DNA from: a virus
Lineage: Duplodnaviria; Caudoviricetes
IMG/VR virus record: IMGVR_UViG_3300049141_000098
Location: 1-64,000 of that record
Strand: one strand, 5' to 3'
DNA: 64,000 nt
Shown here: positions 32,294 to 60,184 of the stretch, one piece after another
How positions within the stretch are numbered: the stretch's first letter is position 1
Layout: every line of letters starts with the position of its first letter
Translations under genes and position numbers: made by a program
Notes under the pieces: generated by a model
What the model was told of the DNA's origin: nothing
Seen by the model: only the letters and a program-made list of their open reading frames with translations
The model's database searches: none

Positions 32294-32303
32294 GGCCTAG
32301 GCC
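32294..32303. promoter_or_regulatory. GGCCTAGGCC palindromic operator candidate (recT promoter region)
   Basis: Exact palindrome overlapping the Cas4-like stop codon; - strand TACTGT -10 box at 32271-32276. Confidence 0.6.
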
Positions 32304-34144
32304 GTTCTGCGACCGAACTTTGGGCGCTTCACACAGACCCAGCACTCAGGGTCGGGAGACAGTTCCGTCGCTCGCCCCGAGCGCACAACCTCAGCCAGGT
32401 GAGAGGCCCTGCGAATGACCGCCTCGGCGACGTCCGGACGGTAGGGGCAAGACGCCACCCACAGGTCGGTGATGTAGTTGGAGTCGCGAGGGATGAACAC
32501 CAGCACGGCGTAGTCCGCTTGACGACCCATCTTCCGCAGGCCGTACAGGTAGAGCATGGTCTGCCCCATGTACTCGGGCGGCACGCCGCCGGAGTTCGCC
32601 TCAGACCGGGACAGCAGCGACGTGAGCCGGGCGAGATCGACGTCGCCAGGCTTCAGCAGACCAGCCCGGTCCCTGATCTTGAGGTCATCGAGTTCGGTCC
32701 GCTCTTGTGCTGTCAGACCGAGGGTGTAGGCGTTGGGACCGGCTTGCTTCTTGTACTTCTCGATCTTCGCCTTGTCGCTGGTGTTGTGAGTCGGGATCAT
32801 CCCTTCGGTGCACAGGTATGTGCTGTCAGGTGAGTCCACCTTGATGCACTGCGTGGGCACCGTCAGAGTCGGTTCAACTGACTTGATGACACGCTGCCGG
32901 GCTCGCACCTCGAAACGCACGTCAACCAGGTCCGCCTTGACTGGGCTCAGGAACGGATTCAGTCCGTGCACCGGGGTGAAGGAAACCATGTAGGCCGTCA
33001 CCTCCTTCCCGAACCCCGTGCGTCGCACTTCGTTCACCACGGGGCGCTGACCAAGGCTTATGGCCAGCTCGTACACCCCGAGCGACATCCGCTTGTCAAC
33101 AGACTCGAACACCGCCTTCCGGCGCCCCTTGTTCCAGGTGCCGTCCGTGTCCATGAGGCCGCGCAGCAGGTCGAGTCGCTGCTGAATGGAGCCCCGGAAG
33201 TACCGGGGCGGAATGTGCTTGTTGTGCAGGAGGTCGCAGTCGGCCAAAAGCCCTCGCAGCCCATGGATGGTGCGGGCGCGACTGGTCTGATTGCCACTAC
33301 CCTGCGGCTTGCCGATCTGGAAGCCGCGCCCTCGGATCAACTCGAACAGGCCCTCGTCCGGCTTGCAGATCCTGGCCTCCGAGGCGTCGCCATCGCCGAG
33401 CCAGCACCCCAGGACATACGGGTCGATCGGAAGGTCGGCGTCCGGGAGTTCCAGGGCTCCGGCGTTCATCACTCGATGACGGCTTTGGCCGTTGCCCAGC
33501 TTGAGGGTTCGTCGAATCTCCTCAGTGCTGAGAACCCTCTCGGTAGCGCGGCTCCCCTCTCCGGAGGTGACGGCCCACAGGTGTTCGTCGTCGGCGACGG
33601 CCTGCTTGCCATCCTCGAACGTGATTCGGTAGCAGGTGCGGTGGTGGACTTCGGACTTGCCGAGCACCTTGCAGGGGCGCCCCTGAGAGTCGAACAGTTC
33701 GTCGCCGACCTGGATTTCACCCATGGTGGTCCAGCCGGTTGGCGTGGGCAGCTTGGTGTCGAGCGCCAAGCCCTTCCAGTCCACAACTGTGCGCTTGCGC
33801 GGAAGGAAGACGTCGGTATGCCCTTCCACCACGCCAAGGCCAGGGATGTCGCCGATGCGAACAGTGATCTCCACCTCGGCGTGCGGATAGATGCGGGGCA
33901 GCTCCCGCTCCAGCTTCTCGTGCACCGCCGTGCCGAGCCACGCTTTGAGGCTGAAGTCCTCGCTGACCTGTCCGCCCATGCCGAACGACGAGGCGATCTT
34001 CTTGGCCACGCAGACGTCGCACGTGTTCGCCAGGTCACTGGGGCCGCACGCCTTCTGCTGGTCGCGCCGAGAAGGATTTCTGATGACGGAAACCGCCAAT
34101 CCTTCGACGAAACTGCGGAGAATATTCTGTTCTTCTGCACTCAT
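32297..34144 (-). CDS. Cas4/RecB-like PD-(D/E)xK exonuclease containing an intein
   Basis: 'CDVC', 'GTAVHEKLE', 'GHTDVF...VVDWK|TS', 'QTMLYLYG' and C-terminal 'CWVC'. Confidence 0.85.
   Translation of the reverse strand: MSAEEQNILRSFVEGLAVSVIRNPSRRDQQKACGPSDLANTCDVCVAKKIASSFGMGGQVSEDFSLKAWLGTAVHEKLERELPRIYPHAEVEITVRIGDIPGLGVVEGHTDVFLPRKRTVVDWKGLALDTKLPTPTGWTTMGEIQVGDELFDSQGRPCKVLGKSEVHHRTCYRITFEDGKQAVADDEHLWAVTSGEGSRATERVLSTEEIRRTLKLGNGQSRHRVMNAGALELPDADLPIDPYVLGCWLGDGDASEARICKPDEGLFELIRGRGFQIGKPQGSGNQTSRARTIHGLRGLLADCDLLHNKHIPPRYFRGSIQQRLDLLRGLMDTDGTWNKGRRKAVFESVDKRMSLGVYELAISLGQRPVVNEVRRTGFGKEVTAYMVSFTPVHGLNPFLSPVKADLVDVRFEVRARQRVIKSVEPTLTVPTQCIKVDSPDSTYLCTEGMIPTHNTSDKAKIEKYKKQAGPNAYTLGLTAQERTELDDLKIRDRAGLLKPGDVDLARLTSLLSRSEANSGGVPPEYMGQTMLYLYGLRKMGRQADYAVLVFIPRDSNYITDLWVASCPYRPDVAEAVIRRASHLAEVVRSGRATELSPDPECWVCVKRPKFGRRTA
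32783..33772 (-). mobile_element. Class 3 intein (330 aa) with LAGLIDADG homing endonuclease
   Basis: N-terminal 'GLALDTKLPTPTGWTTMG', block B 'ADDEHLW', 'LGCWLGDG' and 'LRGLMDTDG', block F 'PTQCIKV', C-terminal 'IPTHN/T'. Confidence 0.9.
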
Positions 34145-34860
34145 ATCGCAACTCTACACCGCGAGATAGCAGCGTCGACAGACATTCGCGCCACCTTCAG
34201 AAGGTCATCCCAGGTCCCGTGGAGGCTCGCTTCCTGGTACTGGGCGAGCCGAGCCAGGGAGGCGGCCGACCCGGCATATCTGGTCAAACGGGTCGGCTTC
34301 TCATGCCACAGGTGGTACAGCGGGGCTTGCCCCCGCCACGGGGCTCCATGAAGACCGTTCAGGGCCATCGCCCACGCCTCATCCTCCTGCCCCCACCCCA
34401 CGAAAGCCGGATCCAAGGGGCAGTTGAGATATGCGTCTCGCCTGAGGACCGTAATGCCACCGCCCTCGAACCCTTTATAGGGGCTCTGGTCGAGCCAAAT
34501 CGTGCGGCCCGTGAGGGATCCTGGCGACGTTCCATCGTAGATCGCCTGGGTCGCATCCCGGCTCATCCGGTACACCTTCAGGTGGGGCATAGCCCAGTCC
34601 GAACCCTGCTCGACGGCCTGCACCGCCTGCTGGACCCCCGGAGTGATGCTGTCTGCATCCGCGATCACGACCACGGGTTCCGTGGTCTCCGCCAGGGCTT
34701 TGGTAACTGCACTGGCCTTGCACCAGCGCCCCTCGCAGAGTCCGAGCTGAATGTTGGCGCCTTCCAGGTTCTCGGCGTACCAGGATCGCGTGTACTCCAG
34801 CGCCTTCGCCCGCCATGGCGTCTCATTACCAAAAGGTATGAGTACAGCGATACGTTTCAT
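34141..34860 (-). CDS. GT-A glycosyltransferase (GT2/GT7-like)
   Basis: 'IAVLIPF', 'VIADADS' DxD motif, 'GGGITVLRR...FVGWGQEDEAW' galactosyltransferase-type C-terminus. Confidence 0.85.
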   Translation of the reverse strand: MKRIAVLIPFGNETPWRAKALEYTRSWYAENLEGANIQLGLCEGRWCKASAVTKALAETTEPVVVIADADSITPGVQQAVQAVEQGSDWAMPHLKVYRMSRDATQAIYDGTSPGSLTGRTIWLDQSPYKGFEGGGITVLRRDAYLNCPLDPAFVGWGQEDEAWAMALNGLHGAPWRGQAPLYHLWHEKPTRLTRYAGSAASLARLAQYQEASLHGTWDDLLKVARMSVDAAISRCRVAI

Positions 34861-34927
34861 GGGCCTATCCTGGCATGGAAACGGGCTCACGCTCAGGGGA
34901 TGGCGTGGGCCCGTTTCCATGCTCCGG

Positions 34928-35623
34928 TCAGGACGGGATGTCCTCCAGCTCGAAGACCTCGTCATCACTGGCAGGCGCCTTCTCGTCGAGCACCTTCAGC
35001 CGGTCCTCGTCGGTCGCCTCACGAACCTCCAGCTTGAGGCCGTGGCTCTTCATGCATGCCTTGAGCTTCTCGGGCTCGTTCTTGAAGACGAGGCGGGCCG
35101 TGGTTGCGTCGGGCTTCGAGACGGAGATCCGATGCAGGTCTGCGGTGCTCAGGTTCTGGATCGCCTTCCCCTCGTCGAACCGGTCGTTGGTGCTGTAGAC
35201 CAGGGCCAAAGAGCCGTGAAGTTCCAGGCCGGGAGACTTGCGACGCCCCTTGGCGACAGCCTTCGCCCGTTCGATGAGCGCCTTCGTCTCCGAGAGGATC
35301 TTCTGCTGCTCCGCGATCAGCTCGGCCAGCTCGGCCTCTGACAGCTTGTCGAGGTTGTCCAGCAGCTCCATGCGGTCGATCTCCGTCTTCATCGCGTGGG
35401 GGTGGTCACCCGGCAGAGACCGCACCGGGATGTACCCCGAGGTGTAGGGCCGACCATCGCTGGCCAGGTAGCTCTCGTGGAAAGAAGCGGCACGAACACG
35501 ACGAGGCGGACCATACCCGTCGTCGGTGACAGTGACGATCGTGAAGCTGGCGGGGCCTTCGTTGCGGGTCTCGATGAGGTTGCTGGTGCGGACGTTCACG
35601 TAACGGGTGCCAGGCACAGGCAC
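34928..35623 (-). CDS. Hypothetical protein with a central coiled coil
   Basis: AAGGAG RBS; strong GC3. Confidence 0.6.
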   Translation of the reverse strand: MPVPGTRYVNVRTSNLIETRNEGPASFTIVTVTDDGYGPPRRVRAASFHESYLASDGRPYTSGYIPVRSLPGDHPHAMKTEIDRMELLDNLDKLSEAELAELIAEQQKILSETKALIERAKAVAKGRRKSPGLELHGSLALVYSTNDRFDEGKAIQNLSTADLHRISVSKPDATTARLVFKNEPEKLKACMKSHGLKLEVREATDEDRLKVLDEKAPASDDEVFELEDIPS

Positions 35624-35804
35624 TCTCCTTTCCGAAAAGCCCCGTCACCGGGACTCATGAGAGCAACTCTACCATTGTGTCACGAGTTTCTGCGAAATTA
35701 TCGCAGATCACCGAGCCGACTCCCCCTGTCGTGACTGGTAGTCCACGCAGGCAGCCCGGCAAAGAGTCAGATCGCCTGCGTGGACCTGGCCTCGGCGAGC
35801 GCCG

Positions 35805-38800
35805 TCAGCCAACCGCTTCGATGCACCGGACGCCGAAAGCTCGCACGATCTCCGGCTCCACCCGATCTTTGTCTACTCGCGCGTCAAGCCGGTAGACCGT
35901 TGTCTTGCAGGGCCCGTTCACCCGAAGAAGGATGTCGGCCTCCCCCGGATGGTCGTTCAAGATCTGCTTCAGCGCCGAGACCGACTCGGGCGTGACCTTG
36001 GTCGAGGGGAACGTGATGCGAACGAGCGGGCCTCCCTCGACCTCGACGGAGGAGATGTCAAGAACCTGCACCTCCTGCCCGAACAGGCTGATGGCTCCGT
36101 CTCGCTCGTTGATCTGGCCTTGCACCGACACGACGGAGTCCTCGATCAGGACGCTGGAGGCCAGGGTGTACGCGCTGGCGAAGAAGAGGACGTCAATCTC
36201 TCCGTCTCGGTCCGCCAGGCTCACGATCGCGTAGGGCTTGCCCTTCTTTGTGACCTTGTGCTGGACGTTGGTGATCAAACCAGCCAGCCGGACGACTCCT
36301 TCCGTTCGGTCCGAAGTGAGCAGGTCGATCACCGTGCTGTCCCGGCGCTTCGAGAGGATGTGCTCCGTTCCGTCCAGGGGGTGGGCGGACACGTACAGAC
36401 CCAGCATTTCCCGCTCCAACGAGAGAAGGATCTTACGCGGCCATTCCTCCGACGAGATCTCAACTGGCAGGCCGAAGGAGACTCCACCGTCGACTCCGGT
36501 CGCTAGCTCGGAGAACAGATCGTCCTGACCGTACGATGCCGCCTTCTTTCCCGAGATTGCCGCATCGACAGCCATCTCGTACGCCGTCGACAGCCCCTTC
36601 CTGCTGTGCCCCAAGCTGTCGAAAGCACCCCCCTTGATCAGGGATTCGAGGCCCCTCTTGTTCAGTCCAGGCAGGTCCACCTTGTCGATGTAGTCCGCGA
36701 ACGACGTGAAGACGCCCTTGTCTTCCCGGGCCTTGACCACGGCCTCGATCAACCCGTCTCCGACATTGCGCACCGAGCGGAGGCCGAACCGGACGGCGTC
36801 ACCGACGGCAGTGAAGTCTCCGACAGACTCGTTGACGTCAGGAGGGAGCACCTTGATGCCCAGTCTGCGGGCATCCGCCAAGTACGTTCCAGCCTTGTCC
36901 TTGTCGTCTTCGACCGAGGTGAGCAACGCGGCCATGTACTCGGCCGGGTAGTTCGCCTTCAGATACGCGGTCCAGTACGAAATGAGGCCATATCCGGCAG
37001 TGTGGGATTTGTTGAACGCATAGCCGGAGAAGGGGAGCATGACGTCCCAGATGGCCTGTACGGCTTCGGGTGAGTATCCCTTGCCCTCCATGCCGGTGCG
37101 GAACTTGTCCCACTCGGCGGCCAACACTTCGGGTTTCTTCTTGCCCATGGCGCGGCGTAGCATGTCGGCGCCGCCGAGGGTGTATCCGGCCAGCTCTCGG
37201 GCCACCGCCATGATCTGCTCTTGGTAGACGAGCAAGTGGTGAGTGGATCCCAGGATCGGGTCGAGAACCTGCTTCAGTTCGGGGTGGATCGGCTCGGGCT
37301 TCTGCTTTCCGTTCTGGCGCAGTGCGTAGTTGGTGTGGGCGTTGGCGGCCATGGGGCCGGGTCGGTAGAGGGCAAGTGCTGCTGCAATGTCTTCGAAGCG
37401 GGTGGGCTCCATCAGCTTGAGCAGTGCGCGCATCCCGCCGCCGTCGAGCTGGAAGACGCCGAGGGTGTCACCCTTGGCGAGGAGGCCGAAGGTCTTCTTG
37501 TCGTCGAGCGGGATGACCTTCTTGTCCGGGTCCCCGTCCATGGGATCGACCGTGACGAGCTGGACATTACGGTTCTTCTTGATGATCTTCAGGGCGTGGT
37601 CGATGATGCCCAGGTTGCGCAGGCCCAGGAAGTCCATCTTCAGCAGGCCGAGCGCTTCGCATGACGGATAGTCGAAGCCCGCGATCCGCGCCCCGTCCTT
37701 GGCCCGCATGTGCAGCGGAATGCGTTCGACTAGCGGCGTCTTGGAGATGATCACAGCGGCGGCATGCACGCCAGTGTTGCGCGTCAGACCTTCGACGCCC
37801 TTGGCCGTGTCGATGATCTTCTTCACGTCCGGCTCGTTCTGGTACATCTCGCGGACGTCACCGCACTCCCCATATCGGGGGTGCTCGGGGTCGAGGATCC
37901 CGTCCAGTGGAACCGGGTTTCCATTGACGTCCGGCGGGAGCGCCTTGGTGATCCGCTCCCCCTGCTGATAGGGGAACTCCAGAATCCGCGCCGCGTCCTT
38001 GATCGCGTTCTTGGCCTTGATCTTGCCAAACGTGATCACCATCGAGGTGTATTCGGCGCCATACTTCTCAGCGACGTAGCGCACCATCTTCTCGCGCTGC
38101 CGGTCGTCGAAGTCCAGGTCAACATCCGGAGGATTGATGCGCTCCGGGTTGAGGAACCGCTCGAACAGCAGCCCCTGCTCCAGGGGGCACAGCTCGGTGA
38201 TTCGGGTGGCGTAGGCGACGATCGAGCCGGTGGCCGAGCCACGTCCGGGCCCTACCGGGATCTCGTTGTCACGGGCGTACCGGCAGATGTCCGCGACGAT
38301 GAGGAAGTACGAAGAGAAACCCATGGGGCCGATGACGGACATCTCGGTCTCGAAGCGTTGCATGACCTCCGCCGGAAGCGGCACGCCATAGCGCTTTTCC
38401 AGACCCTTCAAGCACTCCTGGCGAAGCCACTCCTCCTGAGTTACCCCGTCGGGAACGTCCGGGTAGTCCGGCATCTCGTCGACCATCGCGAAGACTTCGT
38501 CGTAGGACTCGACGCGCTCAGTGATCAGGAGAGTGTTGTCGCAGGCCTCGGGCAGCTCGGAGAAGAGGCTCCGCATCTCCTGTGCGGTCTTCAGGTAGTA
38601 GCCGGTGCCGGAGAACTTGAAGCGGTTCTCGTCCGACTTGTTCTTCCCGGTGCCAATGCACAGGAGGTTGTCGTGCGCGTCGGCCTGGCTGGCGTGAATG
38701 TAGTGGGCGTCGTTCGTCGCCAGCAGAGGGATGCCCAACTCCTTGGCCAGGCGCAGCAGGTCACCCCGAACCTGAGACTCGATGGACAAGCCGTGATCCA

Positions 38801-39398
38801 TCAGCTCCAGGAAGTAGTTCTCCTTGCCGAGGATCTCCTGGTAGGCAGCGGCCGTCTTGCGCGCTTCGTCGTACTGGCCCAGGCGCAGACGCGTCTGGAT
38901 GGCTCCGGAGGGGCAGCCGGTCGTGCCGATGATTCCCTCGGAGTGCTCGGCGATGAGTTCCATGTCCATCCGGGGCTTGCCAGCCGGGTACTGGCCTGTG
39001 TACGAGGCCTCCGTGGACAGGCGGAAGAGGTTGCGGAGCCCTCGGGCATTGCGGGCCCACATCGTCATGTGGGTGTAGCGGCCACCACCGGAGACGTCCT
39101 TGGTGGCCTCCATGTCGTCGGAGACCTGGCGCGCTCCTCCGGGGTTCCAGAACTCGCGCTTGCGGTTCAGCCGGGAGGAGGGGGCGACGTAGGCCTCGAT
39201 GCCGATGATCGGCTTGACGTCGGGGAACTTCTGGCTGGTGGAGTAGAAGTCGTAGGCGCCGAACATATTGCCGTGGTCGCTCATCGCGACGGCAGGCATC
39301 CCCTGACGGGCCACCTCTTCGAACATGGGCTTGAGCTTCTGGGCTCCGTCGAGCAGGGAGAATTCGGTGTGATTGTGCAGATGGGTAAAGCTGTCCAT
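35805..39398 (-). CDS. dnaE: DNA polymerase III alpha subunit (family C)
   Basis: PHP domain 'HLHNHTEFSLLDG', 'SDHGN', 'ATNDAHY'; 'GRGSATGS'; catalytic 'PPDVDLDFD'; 'MDFLGL'; C-terminal OB fold. Confidence 0.96.
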   Translation of the reverse strand: MDSFTHLHNHTEFSLLDGAQKLKPMFEEVARQGMPAVAMSDHGNMFGAYDFYSTSQKFPDVKPIIGIEAYVAPSSRLNRKREFWNPGGARQVSDDMEATKDVSGGGRYTHMTMWARNARGLRNLFRLSTEASYTGQYPAGKPRMDMELIAEHSEGIIGTTGCPSGAIQTRLRLGQYDEARKTAAAYQEILGKENYFLELMDHGLSIESQVRGDLLRLAKELGIPLLATNDAHYIHASQADAHDNLLCIGTGKNKSDENRFKFSGTGYYLKTAQEMRSLFSELPEACDNTLLITERVESYDEVFAMVDEMPDYPDVPDGVTQEEWLRQECLKGLEKRYGVPLPAEVMQRFETEMSVIGPMGFSSYFLIVADICRYARDNEIPVGPGRGSATGSIVAYATRITELCPLEQGLLFERFLNPERINPPDVDLDFDDRQREKMVRYVAEKYGAEYTSMVITFGKIKAKNAIKDAARILEFPYQQGERITKALPPDVNGNPVPLDGILDPEHPRYGECGDVREMYQNEPDVKKIIDTAKGVEGLTRNTGVHAAAVIISKTPLVERIPLHMRAKDGARIAGFDYPSCEALGLLKMDFLGLRNLGIIDHALKIIKKNRNVQLVTVDPMDGDPDKKVIPLDDKKTFGLLAKGDTLGVFQLDGGGMRALLKLMEPTRFEDIAAALALYRPGPMAANAHTNYALRQNGKQKPEPIHPELKQVLDPILGSTHHLLVYQEQIMAVARELAGYTLGGADMLRRAMGKKKPEVLAAEWDKFRTGMEGKGYSPEAVQAIWDVMLPFSGYAFNKSHTAGYGLISYWTAYLKANYPAEYMAALLTSVEDDKDKAGTYLADARRLGIKVLPPDVNESVGDFTAVGDAVRFGLRSVRNVGDGLIEAVVKAREDKGVFTSFADYIDKVDLPGLNKRGLESLIKGGAFDSLGHSRKGLSTAYEMAVDAAISGKKAASYGQDDLFSELATGVDGGVSFGLPVEISSEEWPRKILLSLEREMLGLYVSAHPLDGTEHILSKRRDSTVIDLLTSDRTEGVVRLAGLITNVQHKVTKKGKPYAIVSLADRDGEIDVLFFASAYTLASSVLIEDSVVSVQGQINERDGAISLFGQEVQVLDISSVEVEGGPLVRITFPSTKVTPESVSALKQILNDHPGEADILLRVNGPCKTTVYRLDARVDKDRVEPEIVRAFGVRCIEAVG

Positions 39399-39449
39399 CG
39401 AACGCCTCCGAGTCGTCACGAAGGGGTCAAGATACCGACCCACCTCACG

Positions 39450-39466
39450 TGGCCTAGGCCAGTCTA
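39450..39466. promoter_or_regulatory. TGGCCTAGGCCA operator candidate abutting the dnaE -10 box (TAGACT, - strand, 39461-39466)
   Basis: Perfect 12-bp palindrome in the divergent dnaE/GT intergenic region. Confidence 0.7.
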
Positions 39467-39529
39467 CAGGCTTTACCCCACTGATACACCCCCAGATCTA
39501 CCTCCCATTTGGTCCGTAGAGTGGGAAAC

Positions 39530-40940: not shown

Positions 40941-40941
40941 C

Positions 40942-49253: not shown

Positions 49254-49796
49254 CTACTCTGCCACGTCCTTTTCCAATGCGGAACTGATCAGATCCAGTT
49301 GACGAAACGCCAAGGTGAGAACGACCTCCCCGAGAGAGCCCAAGCCCAAGACTCGCTGCGCCTTCTTCAGATCTGCACTTCTCTCATGCACGAGTTGCTC
49401 GAATTGAATCTGCTTCTTCGCTAGGGCCACGACGTCGTTCATGGATTCCAAGCCCGCGCTACTTGCCGCCTTGCGGACCTGAACCTGCTCCATCGCCAGC
49501 GGCACAAGTTCGTCCGTAGATTCAAAACCTGCACCACTCGCGGCTGCTTCAAGACTGCTCTGCTTCTTTGCCAGGACGATCAGTTCGTCCACGGACGCCG
49601 ATGCATCGGCTCTGGAGCTTACGATCTCTTGAACTTGACACTGCCTCAGGGACAGGGCCCTGATCACATCCACCTCGTACTTGAGGCCCAACTCCTTCTG
49701 CGCCTCTTTGATTTGATGCATCTCCGTCGGAGTCCATCGGATAGCGGTTCGTTCACTACGGACCTCTGCGTCCGACTCCCTGCTTCGTCCAGCCAT
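49254..49796 (-). CDS. Ribbon-helix-helix DNA-binding protein (CopG/MobC-like) with internal repeats
   Basis: 'RTAIRWTPTEMHQIKEAQKELGLKYEVDVIR'; GAAGGAGG RBS; repeated 'DELxxLAxxQ...AAxxAGxES' units. Confidence 0.6.
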   Translation of the reverse strand: MAGRSRESDAEVRSERTAIRWTPTEMHQIKEAQKELGLKYEVDVIRALSLRQCQVQEIVSSRADASASVDELIVLAKKQSSLEAAASGAGFESTDELVPLAMEQVQVRKAASSAGLESMNDVVALAKKQIQFEQLVHERSADLKKAQRVLGLGSLGEVVLTLAFRQLDLISSALEKDVAE

Positions 49797-49813
49797 GCCC
49801 CCTCCTTCCTGGT

Positions 49814-49866
49814 GGCCTAGGTCAATCATACGCACGAATGGCAGCCATTCGCAATGGCTGCCATTC
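49814..49866. promoter_or_regulatory. Promoter of the RHH gene with a GGCCTAGGTC operator variant and two tandem AATGGCWGCCATT palindromes
   Basis: - strand TTGCGA-18 nt-TATGAT; palindromes at 49836-49850 and 49853-49866. Confidence 0.65.
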
Positions 49867-52273: not shown

Positions 52274-52879
52274 CTACAGGCCAACTCGCGTGGCCCCGTA
52301 GTAGTCAGGCATGTAGTGGACCTTGTCGACTCGGATGAGGGTGCCGGTCCGGGGGGCGTGCAGCATCTTCCCGTCGCCTACATAGATGCCCACATGGTGA
52401 ATCGACCGCCAGTTGCCCTTCTGTCCGAAGAACACCAGGTCGCCCGGTTGCAGCTCGTTCCAAGCGGGGTGGACGTCGGTCGTCTTGTACTGGTCATTGG
52501 CCACGCGAGGCAGCCTGACGCCAGCTTTCGCATACGCCGCCTGGGTCAGCCCTGAGCAGTCGAACCGGCCGCCCTGGGCCGACGAACCCGTGCCGCCCCA
52601 GAGGTAGGGCACGCCAATCTTCGTCTTGGCGTATGCGATGGCCACGGCTGCGGCATCCCCCGAGCGGGAGCGGGAGACGCTTGAGGCGTCCTCCTCCTGC
52701 TGATCGGCTTCCTGCCGCCGCCTCTCCGGGGAGTACCAGTTGACCTCCTCGATCGCCGGGTTGTCGTTGGCCTTAGCGTTCGAGATGGGTGCGGCTTTGA
52801 GGGCCGCGCAGGACGTCATGATGGGCGTGAGTAGGGCCGCCGAAGCGACTGCGGCGATCACGCGCGGGGCTCGATTCAC
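52274..52879 (-). CDS. NlpC/P60 peptidoglycan endopeptidase, predicted lipoprotein
   Basis: 'PYLWGG...FDCSGL', 'PGDLVFF', 'HHVGIYVG..MLHAP'; signal peptide ending 'MTSC'. Confidence 0.9.
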   Translation of the reverse strand: MNRAPRVIAAVASAALLTPIMTSCAALKAAPISNAKANDNPAIEEVNWYSPERRRQEADQQEEDASSVSRSRSGDAAAVAIAYAKTKIGVPYLWGGTGSSAQGGRFDCSGLTQAAYAKAGVRLPRVANDQYKTTDVHPAWNELQPGDLVFFGQKGNWRSIHHVGIYVGDGKMLHAPRTGTLIRVDKVHYMPDYYGATRVGL

Positions 52880-53511
52880 CGCTCGTACTTCCTCGTCTTC
52901 CGCTCGATCATCTTCACGTACGTGTAGGTCTCGCAGTTAGCGAAGGAGCAGGGCGGGACGCCGCCGTACTGCTTCACCCGGAAGCCGCCCGCGTTGTATC
53001 CGGCGAGCATGTTCTTCCAGGTCGGGCCCGGCACGTCCTTCAAGCCCTTGGCCAGCTTGCAGTCGAACGTGGCGGCAGACGGGATGGCATCTTCGGGGTC
53101 GTACTTGTTTCTCTTGCCGTCCCCGTTGGCGTCGATCCCCTCCGTAGCCCAGGTCGAGTCGATGAACTGAGCCATACCCTTGGCGGAGGCCGGGGAGTTC
53201 AAGCGCCCGTCGATGACCTCCGGCTTGAAGTTCATGCTTTCCTGCTCAAGCTGGGCCGCGAGCAGTGCAGGGGTTAGCGTCTTGCACTTGTTGCCCCACT
53301 TGTTCACCAGCTCTTCCCACCGCTTCTTCGGCAGGGATCCTTCGCGGATCTGGGCACTGGAGCCAGTGAACTTGTAGCCCTGTTTTGCCTCAGGCTTCGC
53401 GACTGGAACCGCGTTTGCGGCGGACGGCACTGCCGGGATGAAACCTGTGATTGCCTGCACCGCTCCCGTGGCCAAGAAGATGCCAACGAAGGCGCCTCCA
53501 GCCCTACGCAT
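52876..53511 (-). CDS. Secreted lytic transglycosylase (SLT/GH23)
   Basis: 'LAAQLEQES', 'AKGMAQFIDSTW' and 'LAGYNAG'; signal peptide; GTGA coupling to NlpC/P60. Confidence 0.85.
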   Translation of the reverse strand: MRRAGGAFVGIFLATGAVQAITGFIPAVPSAANAVPVAKPEAKQGYKFTGSSAQIREGSLPKKRWEELVNKWGNKCKTLTPALLAAQLEQESMNFKPEVIDGRLNSPASAKGMAQFIDSTWATEGIDANGDGKRNKYDPEDAIPSAATFDCKLAKGLKDVPGPTWKNMLAGYNAGGFRVKQYGGVPPCSFANCETYTYVKMIERKTRKYER

Positions 53512-53551
53512 TCCCTTCTCCTTTCCTTGTAGCTGACACCACCATAACAAC

Positions 53552-53561
53552 GGCCTAGGCC
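53552..53561. promoter_or_regulatory. GGCCTAGGCC operator candidate within the spacer of the SLT promoter
   Basis: - strand TTGTTA-aatGGCCTAGGCCgttgt-TATGGT (18-nt spacer). Confidence 0.7.
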
Positions 53562-53628
53562 ATTTAACAAGGTGGTTCAGCACGGGACTTGAGGCAAGGA
53601 GGGTTTCCAGGCCGGGCCGGGAAACGCC

Positions 53629-53665
53629 GAAGCGGCTCACCTCCGCGAGGGAGGCGAGCCGCTTC
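53629..53665 (-). terminator. Hairpin after the 53674 gene
   Basis: GAAGCGGCTC / GAGCCGCTTC inverted repeat. Confidence 0.55.
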
Positions 53666-53673
53666 GAAGCCGT

Positions 53674-54267
53674 TCAGCCGATGTGCAGCAGCTGAGGGAT
53701 CCAGTGGCCGACGTTGAAGGTGATCTCGGAGAACGTGCCGCCTCCGAGGGGAAACACCAGGCCGCAGACGGCCCCGTAGGCCAGATCCTTCATGTCGTCA
53801 TCCCGGTTCCGCAGCGACAGGAGGACCAGGATGAAGCACAGGCCCGCCGCTCCGATGTCCGCCAGGATAGGAAAGCCCGACAGGGAGAGGATCAAATCCT
53901 GAACCCACTGGGCGAGGCTCAGCACCGCGCCCGGCTGACTGCTCAGGATGGCGGTCATGCCGAAGAGGCCGAACATGAACGTCATGAGGGACTTCCAGTC
54001 GAGCCCCTCGCTGTCGTTCCGCTTGGACAGGTTGTCCATGAGCCTCTTCGTGGTATCCCCGATGAGACGGTCGCCGAGCGAGACGAAGAGAGGGCCCCAG
54101 GGGCCCATCGGAACCATCTCGCCGGAGCCCCGACGCTTGCGGCCCCGGATGAACCAGGCCGACATGACGAGCAGGATGATGCCGACGCCAGCCATGGACA
54201 TGTGGCCGACCCAGGATGTCTCCGGGACGTCGACCTGCTGCTGTTGGACTACCGCCAGGGTGTTCAC
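53674..54267 (-). CDS. Polytopic membrane protein (putative transfer/spread function)
   Basis: Four hydrophobic segments; AAGGAGAAGAAAG RBS. Confidence 0.65.
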   Translation of the reverse strand: MNTLAVVQQQQVDVPETSWVGHMSMAGVGIILLVMSAWFIRGRKRRGSGEMVPMGPWGPLFVSLGDRLIGDTTKRLMDNLSKRNDSEGLDWKSLMTFMFGLFGMTAILSSQPGAVLSLAQWVQDLILSLSGFPILADIGAAGLCFILVLLSLRNRDDDMKDLAYGAVCGLVFPLGGGTFSEITFNVGHWIPQLLHIG

Positions 54268-54476
54268 CTTTCTTCTCCTTTTCGGTGTGGAGCGCTGGGC
54301 TTGGCGCCCCCTGCTCTTACTTGCCGTGTGTGGGCGTCAGGATCGGCAGGTCGTTGTTGTTGTTGCGCATCTCGTTCTTTCTCCTTTCCGAGCGTTGGCC
54401 CGCAGGCCACGCTTAGCGCGCTCCGGCCGTTGTGAGGCGGCACCGCACCCATAAGGTGCGTCGGAGGCTTGATGCA

Positions 54477-55436
54477 TCACCAGGCTGCATCCGGTGCGTT
54501 GAGTAGAGCGCCTGAGATGATCGAGGCGAGTGGGATCATGAGGATCGCGTGGAAGAGACCGGGCCCCATCTTGCTGCTCCGCTCCAACTCCTCCTCCGAC
54601 ATGGCCTGCCGGGCGTGGTAGAGCTTTTCCATGCGATCAAAGACCCACATCGTGCAGTAGTAGGCCGCGCAGAACAGGCCAGCGACCCAGATTTGCCACC
54701 ACCCCAGCGTCCACGGCTGGCCGAACCAGGCCGTGATGTAGTCCGGGTAGGCCACGCCCACCAGGAAGGTGGCCGGGACCATCCAGGGCAGCCTGGTCAG
54801 CCACTTAACGGCGAGTTCGGCTGCCTTGCCGTAGTAGGGCGATCGCTTGATGTGCTCGACCGCCGCGCTTCTGAAGCTGAACAGGACCATGGGTGCGAGG
54901 CCAAGACAGATTGCCGCGATGAGGCCGACCGTCTGACCCGTCTCACTGGCCATCCGTAACGTGTCCCGGAACCATCGCCCAGGCCCCTGGAGGAGGCCCC
55001 AGTCGATGGTGCTGGTGCCGTAGCGGATCCGTTCATAGGCGGCGGCCAGAAGGAACTGCGGGCCAACAGCCCAGGACGCAGCCACCGAGATCATGAACGA
55101 GGTGACGTACGGCCTCGTCTTTCCGTTCTTCGGAGCGAGAGTCCTTCTGACGGCCTTGATGACCGGTTGTACCGTCTCGCGGGCGACCTCTCCCTCTCTA
55201 CTGACTTTCTGCTTGGCGGGAGCCAGGATTTCTCCCGCTTCCCGGCGGATGTTTTGCTTCTTTCCCTCAGCCGATTTCCTCGCGTCCACCCACTTGGAGT
55301 GAGACGACGAGATCTTCCCCTTCAGGTTCTTGAGGTCCCCCTTCAGGGTGCGCGGTGGCTTCCGCGTCCCAGAGGGCTTCAGGTGCACATCAGGGTCATA
55401 CGTCGGCTTCGGCGGAGTCTTGACCGGCGCGGTCAC
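54477..55436 (-). CDS. Polytopic membrane protein with a basic N-terminal domain
   Basis: Lys/Arg-rich N-terminus followed by several TM helices; GGGAGGGAG RBS. Confidence 0.65.
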   Translation of the reverse strand: MTAPVKTPPKPTYDPDVHLKPSGTRKPPRTLKGDLKNLKGKISSSHSKWVDARKSAEGKKQNIRREAGEILAPAKQKVSREGEVARETVQPVIKAVRRTLAPKNGKTRPYVTSFMISVAASWAVGPQFLLAAAYERIRYGTSTIDWGLLQGPGRWFRDTLRMASETGQTVGLIAAICLGLAPMVLFSFRSAAVEHIKRSPYYGKAAELAVKWLTRLPWMVPATFLVGVAYPDYITAWFGQPWTLGWWQIWVAGLFCAAYYCTMWVFDRMEKLYHARQAMSEEELERSSKMGPGLFHAILMIPLASIISGALLNAPDAAW

Positions 55437-55496
55437 ATCTCTCCCTCCCGATGAGGAGTTTGGCCAGAAGTCCTTCCGATACCCTGCTCACGGATT

Positions 55497-55506
55497 GGCC
55501 TAGGCT
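55497..55506. promoter_or_regulatory. GGCCTAGGCT operator variant upstream of the 55436 gene
   Basis: 9/10 match, flanked by the direct repeat CGATACCCTG (55477 and 55509). Confidence 0.55.
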
Positions 55507-55652
55507 GGCGATACCCTGGAGAGGGTCAGTCCGTGAGAGGAGGTCGAACTTCGTCTGGAGCCCCGGAAGGTTCCAGTTCCTCCTCGTTTGCCATGCTGTG
55601 CGACGTCTGCCCTTCTTCGGCTGGCGTCGCGGACTCCAGCATGACACAATTC

Positions 55653-55662
55653 GGCCTAGGCC
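55653..55662. promoter_or_regulatory. GGCCTAGGCC operator candidate upstream of gntR
   Basis: Exact palindrome 23 nt before the GntR start. Confidence 0.7.
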
Positions 55663-55685
55663 ACAAGTAGAAGTGAGGAGAGAGC

Positions 55686-56420
55686 GTGAGCGAGCAAATC
55701 CCCAAGTTCCGGTCTATCGCGCAGAAGTTGAGGTCTCAGGTGACCTCCGGAGCGCTGGCGCCCGGTACCCCCCTCGCGTCGCGTCGAAGGCTTGCGAAGG
55801 ATTTCCAGACGTCGCGCGTCACGATCGACAAGGTCGTTGAGCTGCTGACAGCGGAAGGAGTTTTCGAGCCTTCCGACGGCAATCGACCACCAGTTGTTGC
55901 GGATATCTCGCAACGAGTCGTCAGCGTGCAGGACCGGGTGGACAGTCATGCCACCAACGGTCGGGCGTTGCGAGCCAATGAGGTCTCGAAGATCTTGTCG
56001 GTCGAGAAGACGCCATGCCCAGCCGACATCGCCCCCTTGCTCGGCGTCGCTCCGGGCAAGGAGGTTCTTTGCCGAACCCGACTGAACCTGGTCGACGACC
56101 ATCCGGATGCCACGGGCTACTCCTACTACCCACCGGAGGTGGTGGAGTTGGTGCCGGAGCTGGCACAGCCCGAATCCCTCCCCGAGGGCTCCCGGGAGTT
56201 GGTGAGCGAACGCATGGGGTCCCGGCAGAAGTACCGAAGGGACATCGTCACGTCTCGTCTGGCCACCGATCGGGAGCGTGAACTTCTCCAGTTGGGTGGC
56301 ACCTTGAATGTCGTGACACAGGACATGCGCCATGTGACCCTGGCCAACGGCAAGGTCATCGAGGTGGCCGTAAAGATCACCGAAGGAAACCGTCCGATCT
56401 CGTTTCTCTCGGAGCTGTGA
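55686..56420 (+). CDS. GntR/HutC-family repressor with UTRA domain (KorA/TraR-like)
   Basis: 'FRSIAQKLRSQVTSGALAPGTPLASRRRLAKDFQTSRVTIDKVVELL' wHTH plus a UTRA-like C-terminus; divergent from the transfer-like genes. Confidence 0.9.
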   Translation: MSEQIPKFRSIAQKLRSQVTSGALAPGTPLASRRRLAKDFQTSRVTIDKVVELLTAEGVFEPSDGNRPPVVADISQRVVSVQDRVDSHATNGRALRANEVSKILSVEKTPCPADIAPLLGVAPGKEVLCRTRLNLVDDHPDATGYSYYPPEVVELVPELAQPESLPEGSRELVSERMGSRQKYRRDIVTSRLATDRERELLQLGGTLNVVTQDMRHVTLANGKVIEVAVKITEGNRPISFLSEL

Positions 56421-56459
56421 AGCCTGACGGCGGTCAGCAGGACGCCGCTTTACGACGAA

Positions 56460-56505
56460 GGGCCCGGTTGCAGGGAGGCCACAACCCTGCAACCGGGCCC
56501 GTTTT
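56460..56505 (+). terminator. Intrinsic terminator between convergent genes
   Basis: 16-bp perfect inverted repeat GGGCCCGGTTGCAGGG / CCCTGCAACCGGGCCC followed by GTTTT. Confidence 0.8.
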
Positions 56506-56512
56506 GTTGCGC

Positions 56513-57256
56513 TCAGGGGACGTGGTCGAGCTTGAAGGCGTCGTCGCCACGCGCCAGCTCCTCGCGCATCTCCTCGTACTGCCAAAGATGTCCCTGAGGG
56601 TGGAGCCAGACCAGCTCCTCCATGTAGGCGGGAAGCTTCTCGCCTTGCATCTCCAGGGGGATGTGCAGGCACTCTGACGGTCCGACCCCGTACAGCCAAG
56701 TGAGGGCGCCGAATCCGATGAAGTGCCGCTGACCACCAGACGTGACGTAGCCGGGGCAGACGGCATACTTCTTCCCCGCTACGTCCTCGGGCCGGAACTC
56801 TCGATCAGGCGGGTCGCCAGGTTCTGCAACTCGTCGGCGATCCTCTCGGCGTCCCTCGCTCCGTATCGATCCTCGATGCTCTCCTGCCACCCGCTGGCCA
56901 GGGCGGACTCCAGGATCAGTCCGGCGCGGAACTTCGCTTCCCGCTTCGCCTGCCTGCCATCCATCGGGGATGGGCCTCCACTTTCTATCAGTCTTCCTGC
57001 GTTCAGGGTCCCAAAGAGCTGGCCCTCCCGCCCGGATCCAGCTCCGTACGTCCGCCAGACTAGGGGCGACCAGCACCTGCCACCGGGTCCACCTGTCCAG
57101 TCCGACACTGAATCGGGTGTCGCGCACTGTCCAGTACTGCGGCTTCGACGACCCGCAGTACTCGGGTTCGACCACGAGGTGACTGTGCCCGGAGATCTCG
57201 TAGTGCAGGTCGTCAGTCCGATCGCTGCCCCGACGGTGCAGCAGAGGCTTCGTCAC
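56513..57256 (-). CDS. Hypothetical protein, possibly a fusion of two small genes
   Basis: GTGA-coupled start; GC3 strong in the C-terminal part but poor where it overlaps 56779-56964. Confidence 0.4.
   Translation of the reverse strand: MTKPLLHRRGSDRTDDLHYEISGHSHLVVEPEYCGSSKPQYWTVRDTRFSVGLDRWTRWQVLVAPSLADVRSWIRAGGPALWDPERRKTDRKWRPIPDGWQAGEAGSEVPRRTDPGVRPGQRVAGEHRGSIRSEGRREDRRRVAEPGDPPDREFRPEDVAGKKYAVCPGYVTSGGQRHFIGFGALTWLYGVGPSECLHIPLEMQGEKLPAYMEELVWLHPQGHLWQYEEMREELARGDDAFKLDHVP
56779..56964 (-). CDS. Small hypothetical protein nested in another frame
   Basis: GGAGG RBS, ATG, strong GC3. Confidence 0.5.
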   Translation of the reverse strand: MDGRQAKREAKFRAGLILESALASGWQESIEDRYGARDAERIADELQNLATRLIESSGPRT

Positions 57257-57594
57257 GGCCGTTCCAGGAAGTACCACTCATCTCCGTCAAAGCGAAGGTC
57301 GCCGAAGTCGGTTCCGATCGTGACATCGCCCGAGCTGTGTGCGGTCACTGCGGCATCCCCCTGCGTGGTCAGCAGGTTCAGACCAGAAGCAAGCACATTG
57401 CCCAGCTCTCTGCCTTGGGACATGGGGTCATCTCCAGCGACCAGCTCGGCCATCGCGGCTTCCACGTCTTTCGTCAGTGACCTGCTGGAGCCGAGCCTTG
57501 CGAGTTCCTTCTCCGCCTTGTCGACGATGAGCCACAGCTCCGCAACACGCGCATTGCGCTCCGCCCTGTTCACGCTTTCCCCTCTCCGTGTCAA
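57253..57594 (-). CDS. Hypothetical protein
   Basis: Coupled to both neighbours by 4-nt overlaps. Confidence 0.5.
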   Translation of the reverse strand: MTRRGESVNRAERNARVAELWLIVDKAEKELARLGSSRSLTKDVEAAMAELVAGDDPMSQGRELGNVLASGLNLLTTQGDAAVTAHSSGDVTIGTDFGDLRFDGDEWYFLERP

Positions 57595-58292
57595 CCCTCG
57601 TCGCTCACAGCCACCAGATCTCCCGAGAGGTCCAGTAGAGCTACCTGGTGTGGAGCTGTCTTCGTGGAGAACTCGACCGTACCTTCGACGACTTCGCCGG
57701 GTTCGATGGCCCGCAACCCGGGGGCCAACGTACCCTCGCCGACAATCGCTGGGCGACCGTCACCCTTCACCATCGTGGCAAGCACGGTCACCTGTTCGTC
57801 AGTGCTGTTGCGGATGGTCACCTTCATGACAACGCCGACTTGCCCTTTGCCCGCAGGGGTGGCCGAGAGCGTGACAACCTTCGCCGTCGGCTGCCCAGGT
57901 GGAGGGGTTGCCCTCGATGGACTCTGCGCCGGACCTTCTCCTGCGGCTGGGAGGTCTTCACCAGAAACACCTCCGCCAGCAGGGGGAAGGTCTGCACTCT
58001 GACTGGTGGATGTGGTGGCGGGGGACTTCCCCTCCTGCTCGCTTCCGTCAGTCGCGGCGTTGAGGAACAGTGAGCCCACGATGACCGCGCCCGCCACGCC
58101 GCCGACTACCTTCACGACCCTGCCCCGAGAATTGCCAGAGGTGGGGGCGTCCGGCTTGTCGCTGTCCGGCTCTTCCCGCGTGGGGTTGACCGGAGGCTGC
58201 GAAGGTTGAGGGAGCGCCGCTATGGGCGGTGCGATCGACTCCTTGATGCCTTCGCCCGTGGCGGGCTGCGTACTCCACCAGTCGGTAGTCAT
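57591..58292 (-). CDS. Membrane-anchored protein with a Pro-rich linker and Ig-like C-terminus
   Basis: One TM helix 'VVGGVAGAVIVGSLFL'; beta-rich C-terminus. Confidence 0.6.
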   Translation of the reverse strand: MTTDWWSTQPATGEGIKESIAPPIAALPQPSQPPVNPTREEPDSDKPDAPTSGNSRGRVVKVVGGVAGAVIVGSLFLNAATDGSEQEGKSPATTSTSQSADLPPAGGGVSGEDLPAAGEGPAQSPSRATPPPGQPTAKVVTLSATPAGKGQVGVVMKVTIRNSTDEQVTVLATMVKGDGRPAIVGEGTLAPGLRAIEPGEVVEGTVEFSTKTAPHQVALLDLSGDLVAVSDEG

Positions 58293-58498
58293 CCCTTCCT
58301 CCCTCCCTTCAGCTTTTTGCGGATGTTGAGCGCCGCTCCGGTTACGGCTCCGGCCACAAACGCTTCTTTCGACGGAACACCGATGGCCACGAAGGTGGCA
58401 CTGTCCAGTGCGGCGCCCATCAGGGCGGCCGTGGTTACGCCGGGGTCGACCTCTTCCATGCCTTGCTGTATGGCCCAGGTGACGGCTTTCTCCATCAC
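58289..58498 (-). CDS. Small hydrophobic protein
   Basis: Gly/Ala-rich helices; ATGA coupling. Confidence 0.4.
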   Translation of the reverse strand: MMEKAVTWAIQQGMEEVDPGVTTAALMGAALDSATFVAIGVPSKEAFVAGAVTGAALNIRKKLKGGRKG

Positions 58499-58926
58499 GG
58501 CAGAAGCACCGTCCTCTTGTTTTTCACCCTCACGATCCTTTTCCTTTCCGAAGTACAGATCTACGCTTGGATCCGCGTCAGATCATGAGCACCCCAAAGT
58601 GCCAGATAATCGAACGTCCAGATCGAAGACTCCCCATCCTCACCCCCGCGCTCTTCGACAACCGGGGGTCGGAGGATGGTGAACTCCAGACCGTCGCGAT
58701 GCCGGTACACAATGCCAGGGGGCCAGATCGGCATGGTCGGATGTTCGTGACCGCCCGTAGGGGTGATTCGAATGCGAACATGTTTGATCTTTCCCGTGGG
58801 ATCCTCGTCGGACTCAATCGGCTGGATGACGATCAGATTGGCGCCTGTTGCGCCAGAAGCCTCAAGGCGCCAGGTCATGGCCCCTCCTTTCACGTATCAA
58901 TACATCGAGAATACAAGCAAGTTGAT

Positions 58927-58963
58927 ACAAATGAAGCCCCCTCTTTGAGGGGGCTTCATTTGT
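58927..58963. terminator. Bidirectional terminator-like hairpin
   Basis: 17-bp perfect inverted repeat ACAAATGAAGCCCCCTC / GAGGGGGCTTCATTTGT with a 3-nt loop. Confidence 0.8.
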
Positions 58964-58973
58964 TGAGACACGC

Positions 58974-60089
58974 TCAGTCGGACGAATTTACCAGCCAGTC
59001 CGCGAGATTGTTCTCGATGAACCACTCACGCGGGAAGCTGGTCGTGGCCTCCGACAGTCGAGAAGGGTGCTTGATCTCGTTGGCGGAGCAGAAGTCGATT
59101 CGCTTAACGCCACCCAGGGCGTAGTCCGCTGCGTAGTAACGGCGAGCCAGTTCCGCCTTCCGTGCCTGAGGTTCAGACAGGCCCAGCGCCATCAGCTCAA
59201 TGAGTGAGGCGTCAACCCCATCGGATCCCGTCAGGGCCGGACGGGAAGCGGGGTTGACGACCTGACCGGAGATCATGCGTGGGCGACGAAGACTCATTTC
59301 CCAATCATGGTCGTCACGCATCCGGTCAACATTCGCGCGGGAGGACAGCTCAGCAATTCGGAGTTCCTCCTTCAGGCTGATGTCCAGCGCCTTGAGTCGA
59401 TTCTCCTGTCGCAGCTCCAGCTCCTTCAGCTCGAAGTCGCTCTGCTTCTTCAGGAGCTTGCGCTCGCCCTCGGCCCGCTCGTCCTCCAGGATGCGGTCGT
59501 TCTCACGGCGTCGGGCTTCCATCTCGGCCTTGTGCTTCTCCTCTGTAGCCTTGATCTTCTCGAACTCGACGTTGGCCGCGCGCCTCGTCTCATTGATTTC
59601 GCGCATCTCTTCGTCGGTCGGCGCGACGGGGTCACGCAGATCATCGAGCGCCAGCGACCACGTGAACTTCGTGGCGAGCGGCAGGATCGCAGTGAAGGCC
59701 GCCGTCCAGCCGCCAAGCTCATGGCCGTGGTAGCCGAGCATTGCGGCGACTGCGACTGCTTCGACCCAGCCGATGAACGGGAGAATGTTCCTCGACGTCC
59801 CCTTCGCGCCCCAGCCCGTCCACATGATCTTTTTGCCCTGGTACTCGGCCACCATCGTGGCGCTCCAGAAAACATCCATCGCCGCTGCGGCCGACAGGCC
59901 GACGAGGCTCAGGCCGCCGAGCCTCTCGATGGGAACTGCGGTGACCTGGTTCAGGTCCAGGAACGACCACGTCGAGTAGGCGAGCGATCCGAGGGACATG
60001 AAGCAGGCGAGGCCTACCAGGAAGCTGAACCTGCGCTTCATGTCCTTCTTCTCGGTTTGAGGATTCGTCTCGTTCACCGTCTCAGCCAT
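58974..60089 (-). CDS. SpdB-like membrane protein (TM helices plus a long coiled coil)
   Basis: N-terminal TM helices then an E/R/K-rich coiled coil, the architecture of Streptomyces plasmid spread proteins. Confidence 0.6.
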   Translation of the reverse strand: MAETVNETNPQTEKKDMKRRFSFLVGLACFMSLGSLAYSTWSFLDLNQVTAVPIERLGGLSLVGLSAAAAMDVFWSATMVAEYQGKKIMWTGWGAKGTSRNILPFIGWVEAVAVAAMLGYHGHELGGWTAAFTAILPLATKFTWSLALDDLRDPVAPTDEEMREINETRRAANVEFEKIKATEEKHKAEMEARRRENDRILEDERAEGERKLLKKQSDFELKELELRQENRLKALDISLKEELRIAELSSRANVDRMRDDHDWEMSLRRPRMISGQVVNPASRPALTGSDGVDASLIELMALGLSEPQARKAELARRYYAADYALGGVKRIDFCSANEIKHPSRLSEATTSFPREWFIENNLADWLVNSSD

Positions 60090-60139
60090 CTTGCCGTTTC
60101 TCCCTCTTTCCGAAAGTGCCCGTGGGGGCGACATGCACG

Positions 60140-60184
60140 ACTTTTCCAGATGGCCTAGGCCGTGTCAAGCGAACCTGGAAAAGT
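60140..60184. promoter_or_regulatory. Promoter of the SpdB-like gene with GGCCTAGGCC (60152-60161) next to TTGACA
   Basis: - strand TTGACA-cGGCCTAGGCCatctgg-AAAAGT; flanked by a 10-bp inverted repeat ACTTTTCCAG / CTGGAAAAGT. Confidence 0.7.

Follow-up and report, generated by a model that had tools for sequence, protein, structure and literature searches.

Predicted operators of a phage-encoded HutC-subfamily GntR regulator: a recurrent 12-bp imperfect palindrome at the promoters of a very large phage

Why does a stretch of phage DNA carry the same short palindrome at one gene boundary after another, and which protein would read it? The stretch considered here (the window) is the first 64 kb of the IMG/VR virus record IMGVR_UViG_3300049141_000098, a phage genome of 259,646 bp and 63.6% G+C that we label G000; the named phages closest to it are Satis, Kradal and their kin, Streptomyces phages of ~186 kb. 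An earlier interpretation of the window, made from its letters without database searches (the sequence-only reading), had seen in the palindrome GGCCTAGGCC the mark of a single GntR regulon. Our analysis of the whole genome and its relatives identifies YGRCCTAGGCCA, an imperfect palindrome of 12 bp, as the probable operator of a HutC-subfamily GntR regulator that the phage itself encodes, at 55686-56420.

The five exact copies of GGCCTAGGCC reported in the window, at 32294, 39451, 53552, 55653 and 60152, are all present, as are the two 9/10 variants, at 49814 (GGCCTAGGTC) and 55497 (GGCCTAGGCT). Dinucleotide-preserving shuffles contained 0.04 copies on average, and none of 100 reached five. 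The sites do lie at gene boundaries or between genes, as had been noticed: six of the seven are fully intergenic, and only the one at 32294 touches a gene, overlapping the stop codon of gene 32297-34144. Three other one-mismatch matches in the window (1996, 42201 and 47013) have no CTAG core and fall inside coding DNA, and were excluded from the family. Scanning the entire replicon yielded 20 exact copies, 18 of them intergenic (binomial P 2e-13). The family grows to 33 members when near variants of the 12-mer are included, with the recurrent variants GACC/GGTC and AGCC/GGCT allowed, and 31 of these are intergenic (binomial P about 1e-23), so that the motif is not equally frequent in coding DNA. 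The coding/non-coding split follows our own gene calls, which leave 15% of the genome non-coding. GGCCTAGGCC is by far the commonest 10-bp palindrome of the genome, the runner-up having four copies. A search of the literature did not find this word in a phage or Streptomyces context.

The consensus 12-mer, TGGCCTAGGCCA, can be written TGG-CCTAGG-CCA. Only two sites are perfect; nearly all the others combine one perfect half with a half carrying a single change (C at -6 or A at -4). In the weaker half, G is found at -5 in 29 of 31 sites and at -4 in 22 of 31, while both are invariant in the stronger half. Once the sites are oriented, 15 of the 20 exact copies have C...A flanks, and positions beyond the 12 bp carry zero information, for which reason we rejected a dispersed repeat. 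A directional promoter element was also rejected: the orientation of the imperfect half is independent of the direction of transcription (10:6 in leftward contexts, 1:1 in rightward ones), and the sites do not keep to one place with respect to the -10 box but take two or three. Elsewhere in G000, another repeated word, CCCTAGGGCGCCTCC (GCGTCTCC at 206258), occurs at four intergenic places (187951, 188275, 190850 and 206258) and explains several CCTAGG sites outside the operator family.

Could the pattern arise without any regulator, the motif being a restriction-modification or methylation target, or a residue of CTAG and stop-codon bias? The CTAG tetranucleotide is indeed strongly avoided in this genome (140 observed, about 868 expected from base composition), and the word holds TAG on both strands together with AvrII and HaeIII-type subsites. 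An in-frame TAG, however, bars only one reading frame in three per strand, and stop-codon bias therefore cannot place 31 of 33 sites between genes. Such an origin would also leave unexplained the tight coupling to -10 hexamers and the conservation at orthologous promoters described below, as well as a 12-bp length with fixed flanks. We give it almost no credence.

How are the sites placed within promoters? We read each site in the direction of the adjacent gene and sought a TANNNT hexamer on the transcribed strand. Such a hexamer abuts 22 of the 31 sites. At 11 sites it lies 0-3 nucleotides upstream of the motif (0.56 expected), which puts the motif at the presumed transcription start, and at a further 11 it lies 2-9 nucleotides downstream (1.6 expected), with the motif in the -35/-10 spacer. 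Of 2000 random draws of intergenic DNA upstream of genes, none gave as many in either class. Three further sites are located 15-17 nucleotides upstream of a TANNNT hexamer, that is, over the -35 position, and several sites are adjoined by TTGACA-like -35 boxes. A promoter scan based on the E. coli consensus retrieved two sites, which is not above chance; one of them is the 49814 promoter. TTGACA and TAnnnT boxes together suggest host promoters of the sigma-70 type, and each of the seven window sites is placed where a protein bound to it would get in the way of RNA polymerase.

The same placements raise the question of whether the regulator might activate, or both activate and repress, for example by activating spacer-type promoters and repressing start-site-type promoters as a temporal switch. 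That sites are found at two or three separate places with respect to the -10 box would accommodate such a scheme, and overproduction of SCO3932, a HutC homologue borne by an actinomycete integrative and conjugative element (AICE), raised the activity of its target promoter (PMC8584621). Yet the spacer, the -35 region and the start site are the classical positions of steric repression, several of the promoters already possess both TTGACA and TAnnnT boxes, and the HutC regulators DasR, NagR and KorSA are repressors (PMC4333415, PMC8584621). A positive or dual role thus seems improbable to us, and we retain repression as the expected mode of action.

The candidate reader is a 244-residue protein encoded at 55686-56420 (+), the sole plus-strand gene in a long block of minus-strand genes. 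It combines a GntR winged helix-turn-helix (wHTH; PF00392, residues 10-61, 32.9 bits for a cut-off of 27) with a chorismate-lyase-like UTRA domain (PF07702, residues 101-235, 52.9 bits for a cut-off of 23.8), and is the only protein of the genome with a UTRA match. Its AlphaFold model (predicted local distance difference test score, 84.9) has as its top matches in the PDB two structures of DasR, 9i0v and 4zs8 (E 1e-16, template-modelling score 0.70-0.74), followed by NagR, YydK and PhnF. In the crystal structure of NagR on DNA (GTGGTCTAGACCAC), Arg38 reads G-5, Arg48 reads G-4 and Gly69 of the wing reads G-7, contacts to positions -3 to -1 are confined to the backbone, and the half-sites are six nucleotides apart (PMC4333415). 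These three residues align with R34, R44 and G65 of the phage protein. Among 24 homologues R34 is invariant and R44 conserved in at least 90%, and G65 is found in most members of the phage clade. Two adjacent guanines are expected to be read only by those HutC members that have both arginines (PMC4918961). By its wHTH, its UTRA domain, its modelled fold and its predicted DNA-reading residues, the protein belongs to the HutC subfamily.

The core of the UTRA domain, including a GSRELAAERMG block, is strongly conserved in the phage homologues, which suggests a working ligand-binding or dimerization domain. What might the ligand be? In an uncertain alignment at ~21% identity, the NagR ligand residues Thr90, Arg133 and Ser165 are matched and Arg135, Glu145, Tyr167 and Phe89 are not; this comparison gives no reason to name N-acetylglucosamine-6-phosphate (GlcNAc-6-P) or glucosamine-6-phosphate (GlcN-6-P).

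One copy of the motif, CGGCCTAGGCCA at 55652-55663, lies 23 nucleotides upstream of the start of this gene (gntR), with a conserved CACAAT (55645-55650, +) two nucleotides before it. This copy probably spans the transcription start of gntR and is likely an autoregulatory site. The sequence-only reading had remarked on a site just upstream of the gene, and we find it in all homologues examined, down to 44% protein identity. Its distance is the same, within a conserved block of ~45 nucleotides, in Satis, in six IMG/VR contigs and in the Logan contigs L031 and L033; in L029, whose homologue is 44% identical, this 12-mer again precedes the gene, at another distance from the start. No such site was found upstream of a 40%-identical homologue that has no equivalent of Arg44. 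A covariation of site and protein among distant homologues is, at this stage, only suggestive.

Conservation extends to the rest of the sites. In the complete 187-kb relative G003 we count 16 family members, 11 of which lie upstream of orthologues of site-bearing G000 genes, and the proteins concerned share 30-77% identity. In the alignments, the motif and the -35 and -10 hexamers flanking it stand out as conserved islands amid diverged spacers. The five exact copies of Satis all fall between genes, each upstream of a leftward one; conservation was judged by orthology for G003 and from the depositors' annotation for Satis. From these comparisons the system appears as a conserved core of about 11 sites that has expanded in the larger G000 genome. 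Every cultured relative that has the primase also has the GntR gene, and the next relatives are Arthrobacter phages at 30% identity. No relatives of the phage GntR were found in species-representative bacterial genomes.

Is the UTRA protein indeed the one that reads the sites, or could they be core-promoter operators of a different phage DNA-binding protein, such as a small wHTH or HTH protein, with gntR merely a member of its regulon? Besides gntR, G000 has five or more open reading frames of GntR-like or other wHTH type, and the annotation of Satis shows several HTH proteins in the block that is syntenic around the regulator gene in Satis-type relatives. The strongest of the other GntR-like proteins (325 residues, 230504-231481, +, outside the window) has a wHTH followed by a C-terminal part with no family assignment, and its gene contains the palindrome copy at 230726, one of only two that lie in coding DNA. 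We rejected it as the conserved reader, its orthologue being missing in five relatives that keep the motif. A different reader would also have to account for the GG-N6-CC geometry and the 10/12 identity to the DasR-responsive element (dre), both of which point to a HutC-type protein, for the uniqueness of the UTRA protein in the genome, and for a pairing of site and gntR that persists down to 44% identity. We therefore see in it a minor possibility. The 55686-56420 protein remains the best candidate because a site precedes its own gene, the sites have the GG-N6-CC geometry and lie in core promoters, and the protein has the two arginines and the glycine together with a DasR-like fold.

Several observations weigh against this assignment. 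The TANNNT distance windows were picked after inspection of the data, although the excess is still large, and the promoters are predicted ones. The genome encodes several other wHTH/HTH proteins that are possible readers. Gene and motif occur together in every known relative, none of which can therefore serve as a natural absence control. The phage core GCCTAGGC agrees with the canonical HutC core at only six of eight positions, the GT...AC of the latter being replaced by GC...GC in 33 of 33 sites, and the G at -7 read by the NagR wing is not conserved in the phage sites. Of the single ligand-sensing GntR regulon first proposed, what finds support is that the palindrome marks a regulon whose best candidate reader, by a wide margin, is the 55686-56420 protein; the suggested link to transfer and cross-talk with host N-acetylglucosamine (GlcNAc) signalling through DasR find none, as detailed below.

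Which genes would be controlled? Upstream of gene 30988-32199 (-), a RecT-like annealing protein by a weak match (PHROG 561/4171, E 3e-5 and 2e-4), the candidate operator AGGCCTAGGCCG (32294-32303) is 94 nucleotides from the gene and occupies the -35 position of a -10-like TACTGT (32271-32276, -); the site, the downstream -10 hexamer and the leader are kept in G003. The gene whose stop codon it overlaps, 32297-34144 (-), is exonuclease-like and shows weak LAGLIDADG and Hom_end matches, along with PHROG matches typical of intein-bearing proteins, and probably contains an intein. A perfect 12-bp palindrome, TGGCCTAGGCCA at 39450-39461, lies in the divergent region between a DnaE-type DNA polymerase III alpha subunit gene (35805-39398, -; Pfam DNA_pol3_alpha, PHP, finger and HHH_6) and a glycosyltransferase-like gene on the plus strand, the latter recognized by a sub-threshold Pfam match. 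It is abutted on the dnaE side by TAGACT (39461-39466, -).

The variant TGGCCTAGGTCA (49813-49824), 17 nucleotides upstream of gene 49254-49796 (-), is placed one nucleotide downstream of the -10 box TATGAT (49825-49830, -) of a predicted promoter TTGCGA-18-TATGAT. Further along, the candidate operator CGGCCTAGGCCA at 53551-53562 precedes a putative target operon for wall hydrolases (52274-53511, -), made up of an SLT lytic transglycosylase (52876-53511) and an NlpC/P60 peptidase (52274-52879). This site sits in the spacer between TTGTTA (-35, 53565-53570, -) and TATGGT (-10, 53541-53546, -), and both hexamers are kept with it in G003, Satis and L033. The last site of the window, TGGCCTAGGCCG at 60151-60162, similarly lies in a 17-nucleotide spacer, between TTGACA (60163-60168, -) and a -10-like AAAAGT (60140-60145, -), upstream of a gene for a 371-residue protein with no named family (58974-60089, -). 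Here TTGACA, the operator and an xAxAGT hexamer are kept in G003, Satis, L031 and L033. The promoter overlaps named by the sequence-only reading, spacers at 53552 and 60152 and -10 boxes abutting 39451 and 49814, are thus reproduced.

The remaining variant, TGGCCTAGGCTG at 55496-55507, is located in the region between gntR and the divergent gene 54477-55436. It is flanked by plus-strand TACCCT hexamers, one of them five nucleotides downstream, and is kept in L071 (GCA_042741515.1, 252,977 bp), a relative with 80% identity, and not in G003. A direct repeat, GATACCCTG, flanks this variant at 55478-55486 and 55510-55518, each copy holding one plus-strand TACCCT; these repeats may represent a second, upstream promoter for gntR.

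Among the targets listed by the sequence-only reading, the recT-like gene (with its weak match), dnaE, the glycosyltransferase-like gene (below threshold) and the wall hydrolases are recognizable, and two labels find no support: gene 49254-49796, called ribbon-helix-helix (RHH), has no Pfam or PHROG match, and the supposedly Spd-like gene 58974-60089 matches nothing in Pfam and only one PHROG, an unnamed one (E 2e-4). Further recognizable putative targets are a DnaB helicase, a YAcAr/SLOG protein and the gene of the regulator; most of the rest have no family match. No site was found in the tail-gene block, at 10-23 kb of the window. The case for conjugative transfer finds no footing in these genes: no Spd family match was obtained for the window genes with Pfam or PHROG (a weak SpdB_N match is seen only in one distant relative), and the sole FtsK_SpoIIIE match in the genome, at 84435-84584, scores 18.1 bits for a cut-off of 24 and has no site upstream. 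A 454-residue protein encoded at 8837-10201 (+), whose gene lies amid sugar-modification genes and shortly before that of the major tail protein, has a match (E 2e-64) to a PHROG described as a transcriptional regulator.

How does this phage live, and is the system tied to integration? Sequencing runs that carry its DNA are soil and rhizosphere metagenomes, with no RNA dataset among the runs listed. Near-complete relatives occur as single contigs of 185-253 kb within Streptomyces isolate assemblies. L071 and L033, both single large contigs of this kind, have a second GntR/UTRA paralogue adjoining the first. The supposed terminal repeat of G000 is no more than 127 bp of exact identity between its two ends (window 1-127 and genome 259520-259646). 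It probably reflects the assembly, with overlapping ends, of a circular or permuted genome measuring 259,519 bp, and not a true direct terminal repeat. Outside the window, at 239185-240291 (+), G000 encodes a tyrosine recombinase (Phage_integrase, 57.6 bits), which is present in G000 alone when compared with Satis and four IMG/VR relatives: no integrase was found in these five 170-190-kb genomes, all of which keep the system. ParB_N was not found in G000. The system is therefore not tied to integration.

A bolder scheme can be imagined, in which the regulator is a metabolite-gated master switch. Seated on about 31 host-type promoters, those of dnaE, dnaB, the RecT-like gene and the wall hydrolases among them, it would keep most non-structural genes silent until a metabolite of the host becomes available, allowing a paused or carrier state without integration; it might also bind host dre sites and so perturb the DasR regulon. 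Such a state would agree with the occurrence, noted above, of near-complete relatives in single contigs from Streptomyces isolates. This role is speculative, and we consider the scheme as a whole doubtful.

The most economical role for the GntR/UTRA protein is likely that of an autoregulated, possibly metabolite-sensitive brake on non-structural promoters. We infer binding, repression and a response to an effector along the following lines. A dimer would read two GG/CC dinucleotides six base pairs apart through its two conserved arginines, as NagR and DasR do on dre. The operators would lie within host-type (TTGACA/TAnnnT) core promoters, in the spacer, over the -35 box or over the transcription start, where the bound dimer would block RNA polymerase. 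The operator over the regulator's own promoter would provide negative autoregulation, and the UTRA domain presumably releases the protein from DNA upon binding of a small molecule. About 31 promoters would be co-controlled in this way, those of replication, wall-hydrolase and many uncharacterized non-structural genes.

If so, one regulator, one 12-bp operator and about 31 promoters make up a testable regulatory map for very large Streptomyces phages, which are poorly understood. The cultured relative Satis has the same gene (gp101) and the same sites, making the prediction directly testable in S. lividans. As an expression switch in Streptomyces, a HutC repressor that responds to a ligand and whose operator is orthogonal to the host's could also be of use.

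How does this system compare with known ones? The closest likeness is with DasR and with NagR (YvoA) of Bacillus subtilis, which share the architecture of GntR wHTH and UTRA and the guanine-reading arginines and wing glycine kept in the phage protein, although overall sequence identity is only 20-23%. The motif has the same GG-N6-CC geometry as dre around a CTAG centre, and the perfect phage 12-mer is identical to the dre core TGGTCTAGACCA at 10 of 12 positions, differing only at -3/+3 (C/G for T/A, in 33 of 33 sites). Natural dre sites are imperfect palindromes with one half-site usually deviating (PMC4333415), and so usually are the phage sites.

Might host DasR, or another host HutC regulator, then be the main reader, coupling phage expression to GlcNAc or nutrient status? 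The positions that differ from dre are contacted through the backbone in NagR and the guanines read by the arginines are kept, which would favour this idea. However, no site among the 33, nor any other place in the genome, comes within one mismatch of the dre core; the two perfect palindromes have two mismatches, and variants such as GACC and GGTC drift further away. In 41 Streptomyces genomes (5.5-12 Mb), GGCCTAGGCC occurs 0-7 times per genome versus 8-197 times (about 100) for the reversed word, a composition control, and its density is roughly 250 times lower than in the phage, so that no host regulon appears to use it. The rarity of the word in hosts and the lack of near-dre sites in the phage indicate that this is the phage's own word, favouring a phage-encoded reader and giving no support to a shared DasR regulon; the phage, moreover, has a matching regulator with a site on its own promoter. 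A host reader thus seems quite improbable, and the cross-talk with host GlcNAc signalling put forward earlier is further weakened by the partial conservation of the NagR sugar-contact residues. DasR and NagR target sugar catabolism, whereas the phage-encoded regulator would be aimed at about 31 phage promoters.

Phage repressor systems offer a second comparison. Cluster A mycobacteriophages have stoperators, bound by gp71 in L5, and the phiC31 repressor binds conserved inverted repeats; as in these systems, dozens of copies of one short site are scattered across the intergenic DNA of an actinobacteriophage, many of them at promoters. Stoperators, though, are asymmetric and oriented with transcription, whereas the site described here is palindromic with no significant orientation bias, and its proposed reader is a ligand-binding protein of the HutC type rather than an immunity repressor. 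The linked integration or partition module and the oriented sites that would characterize a temperate immunity repressor with its stoperators are not recognizable here.

A third likeness is with the Kor repressors of Streptomyces mobile elements (KorSA of pSAM2, KorA of pIJ101, TraR of pSN22, and SCO3932), element-borne HutC proteins that bind their own and a few key promoters (PMC4494728, PMC8584621). The phage regulator shares with them the HutC subfamily, carriage by a Streptomyces mobile element and a site at its own promoter. It differs in having no recognizable kil or tra partner and a far larger regulon, and the SCO3932 motif, AC[TC]T[AG]TT[GC][TG][GT]ACG (PMC8584621), is unlike that of the phage. 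More distant homologues of the phage protein are found in a Streptomyces plasmid and the phage-plasmid ZL12. Other perfect palindromes lie upstream of these, GCGCTAGTACTAGCGC and AGCGCTACTGGTAGCGCT, in L034 (ZL12, about 104 nucleotides upstream of the pZL12.80 match) and L047 (an S. kronopolitis plasmid). These palindromes are a hint that mobile elements carry a wider family of HutC regulators, in which each member has a CTAG-containing operator of its own. The canonical HutC operator is NyGTMTAKACNy, with GT and AC four nucleotides apart (PMC4494728). Compared with all these systems, that of G000 would be a mechanistically ordinary repressor-operator arrangement, with an operator that is neither canonical HutC nor dre.

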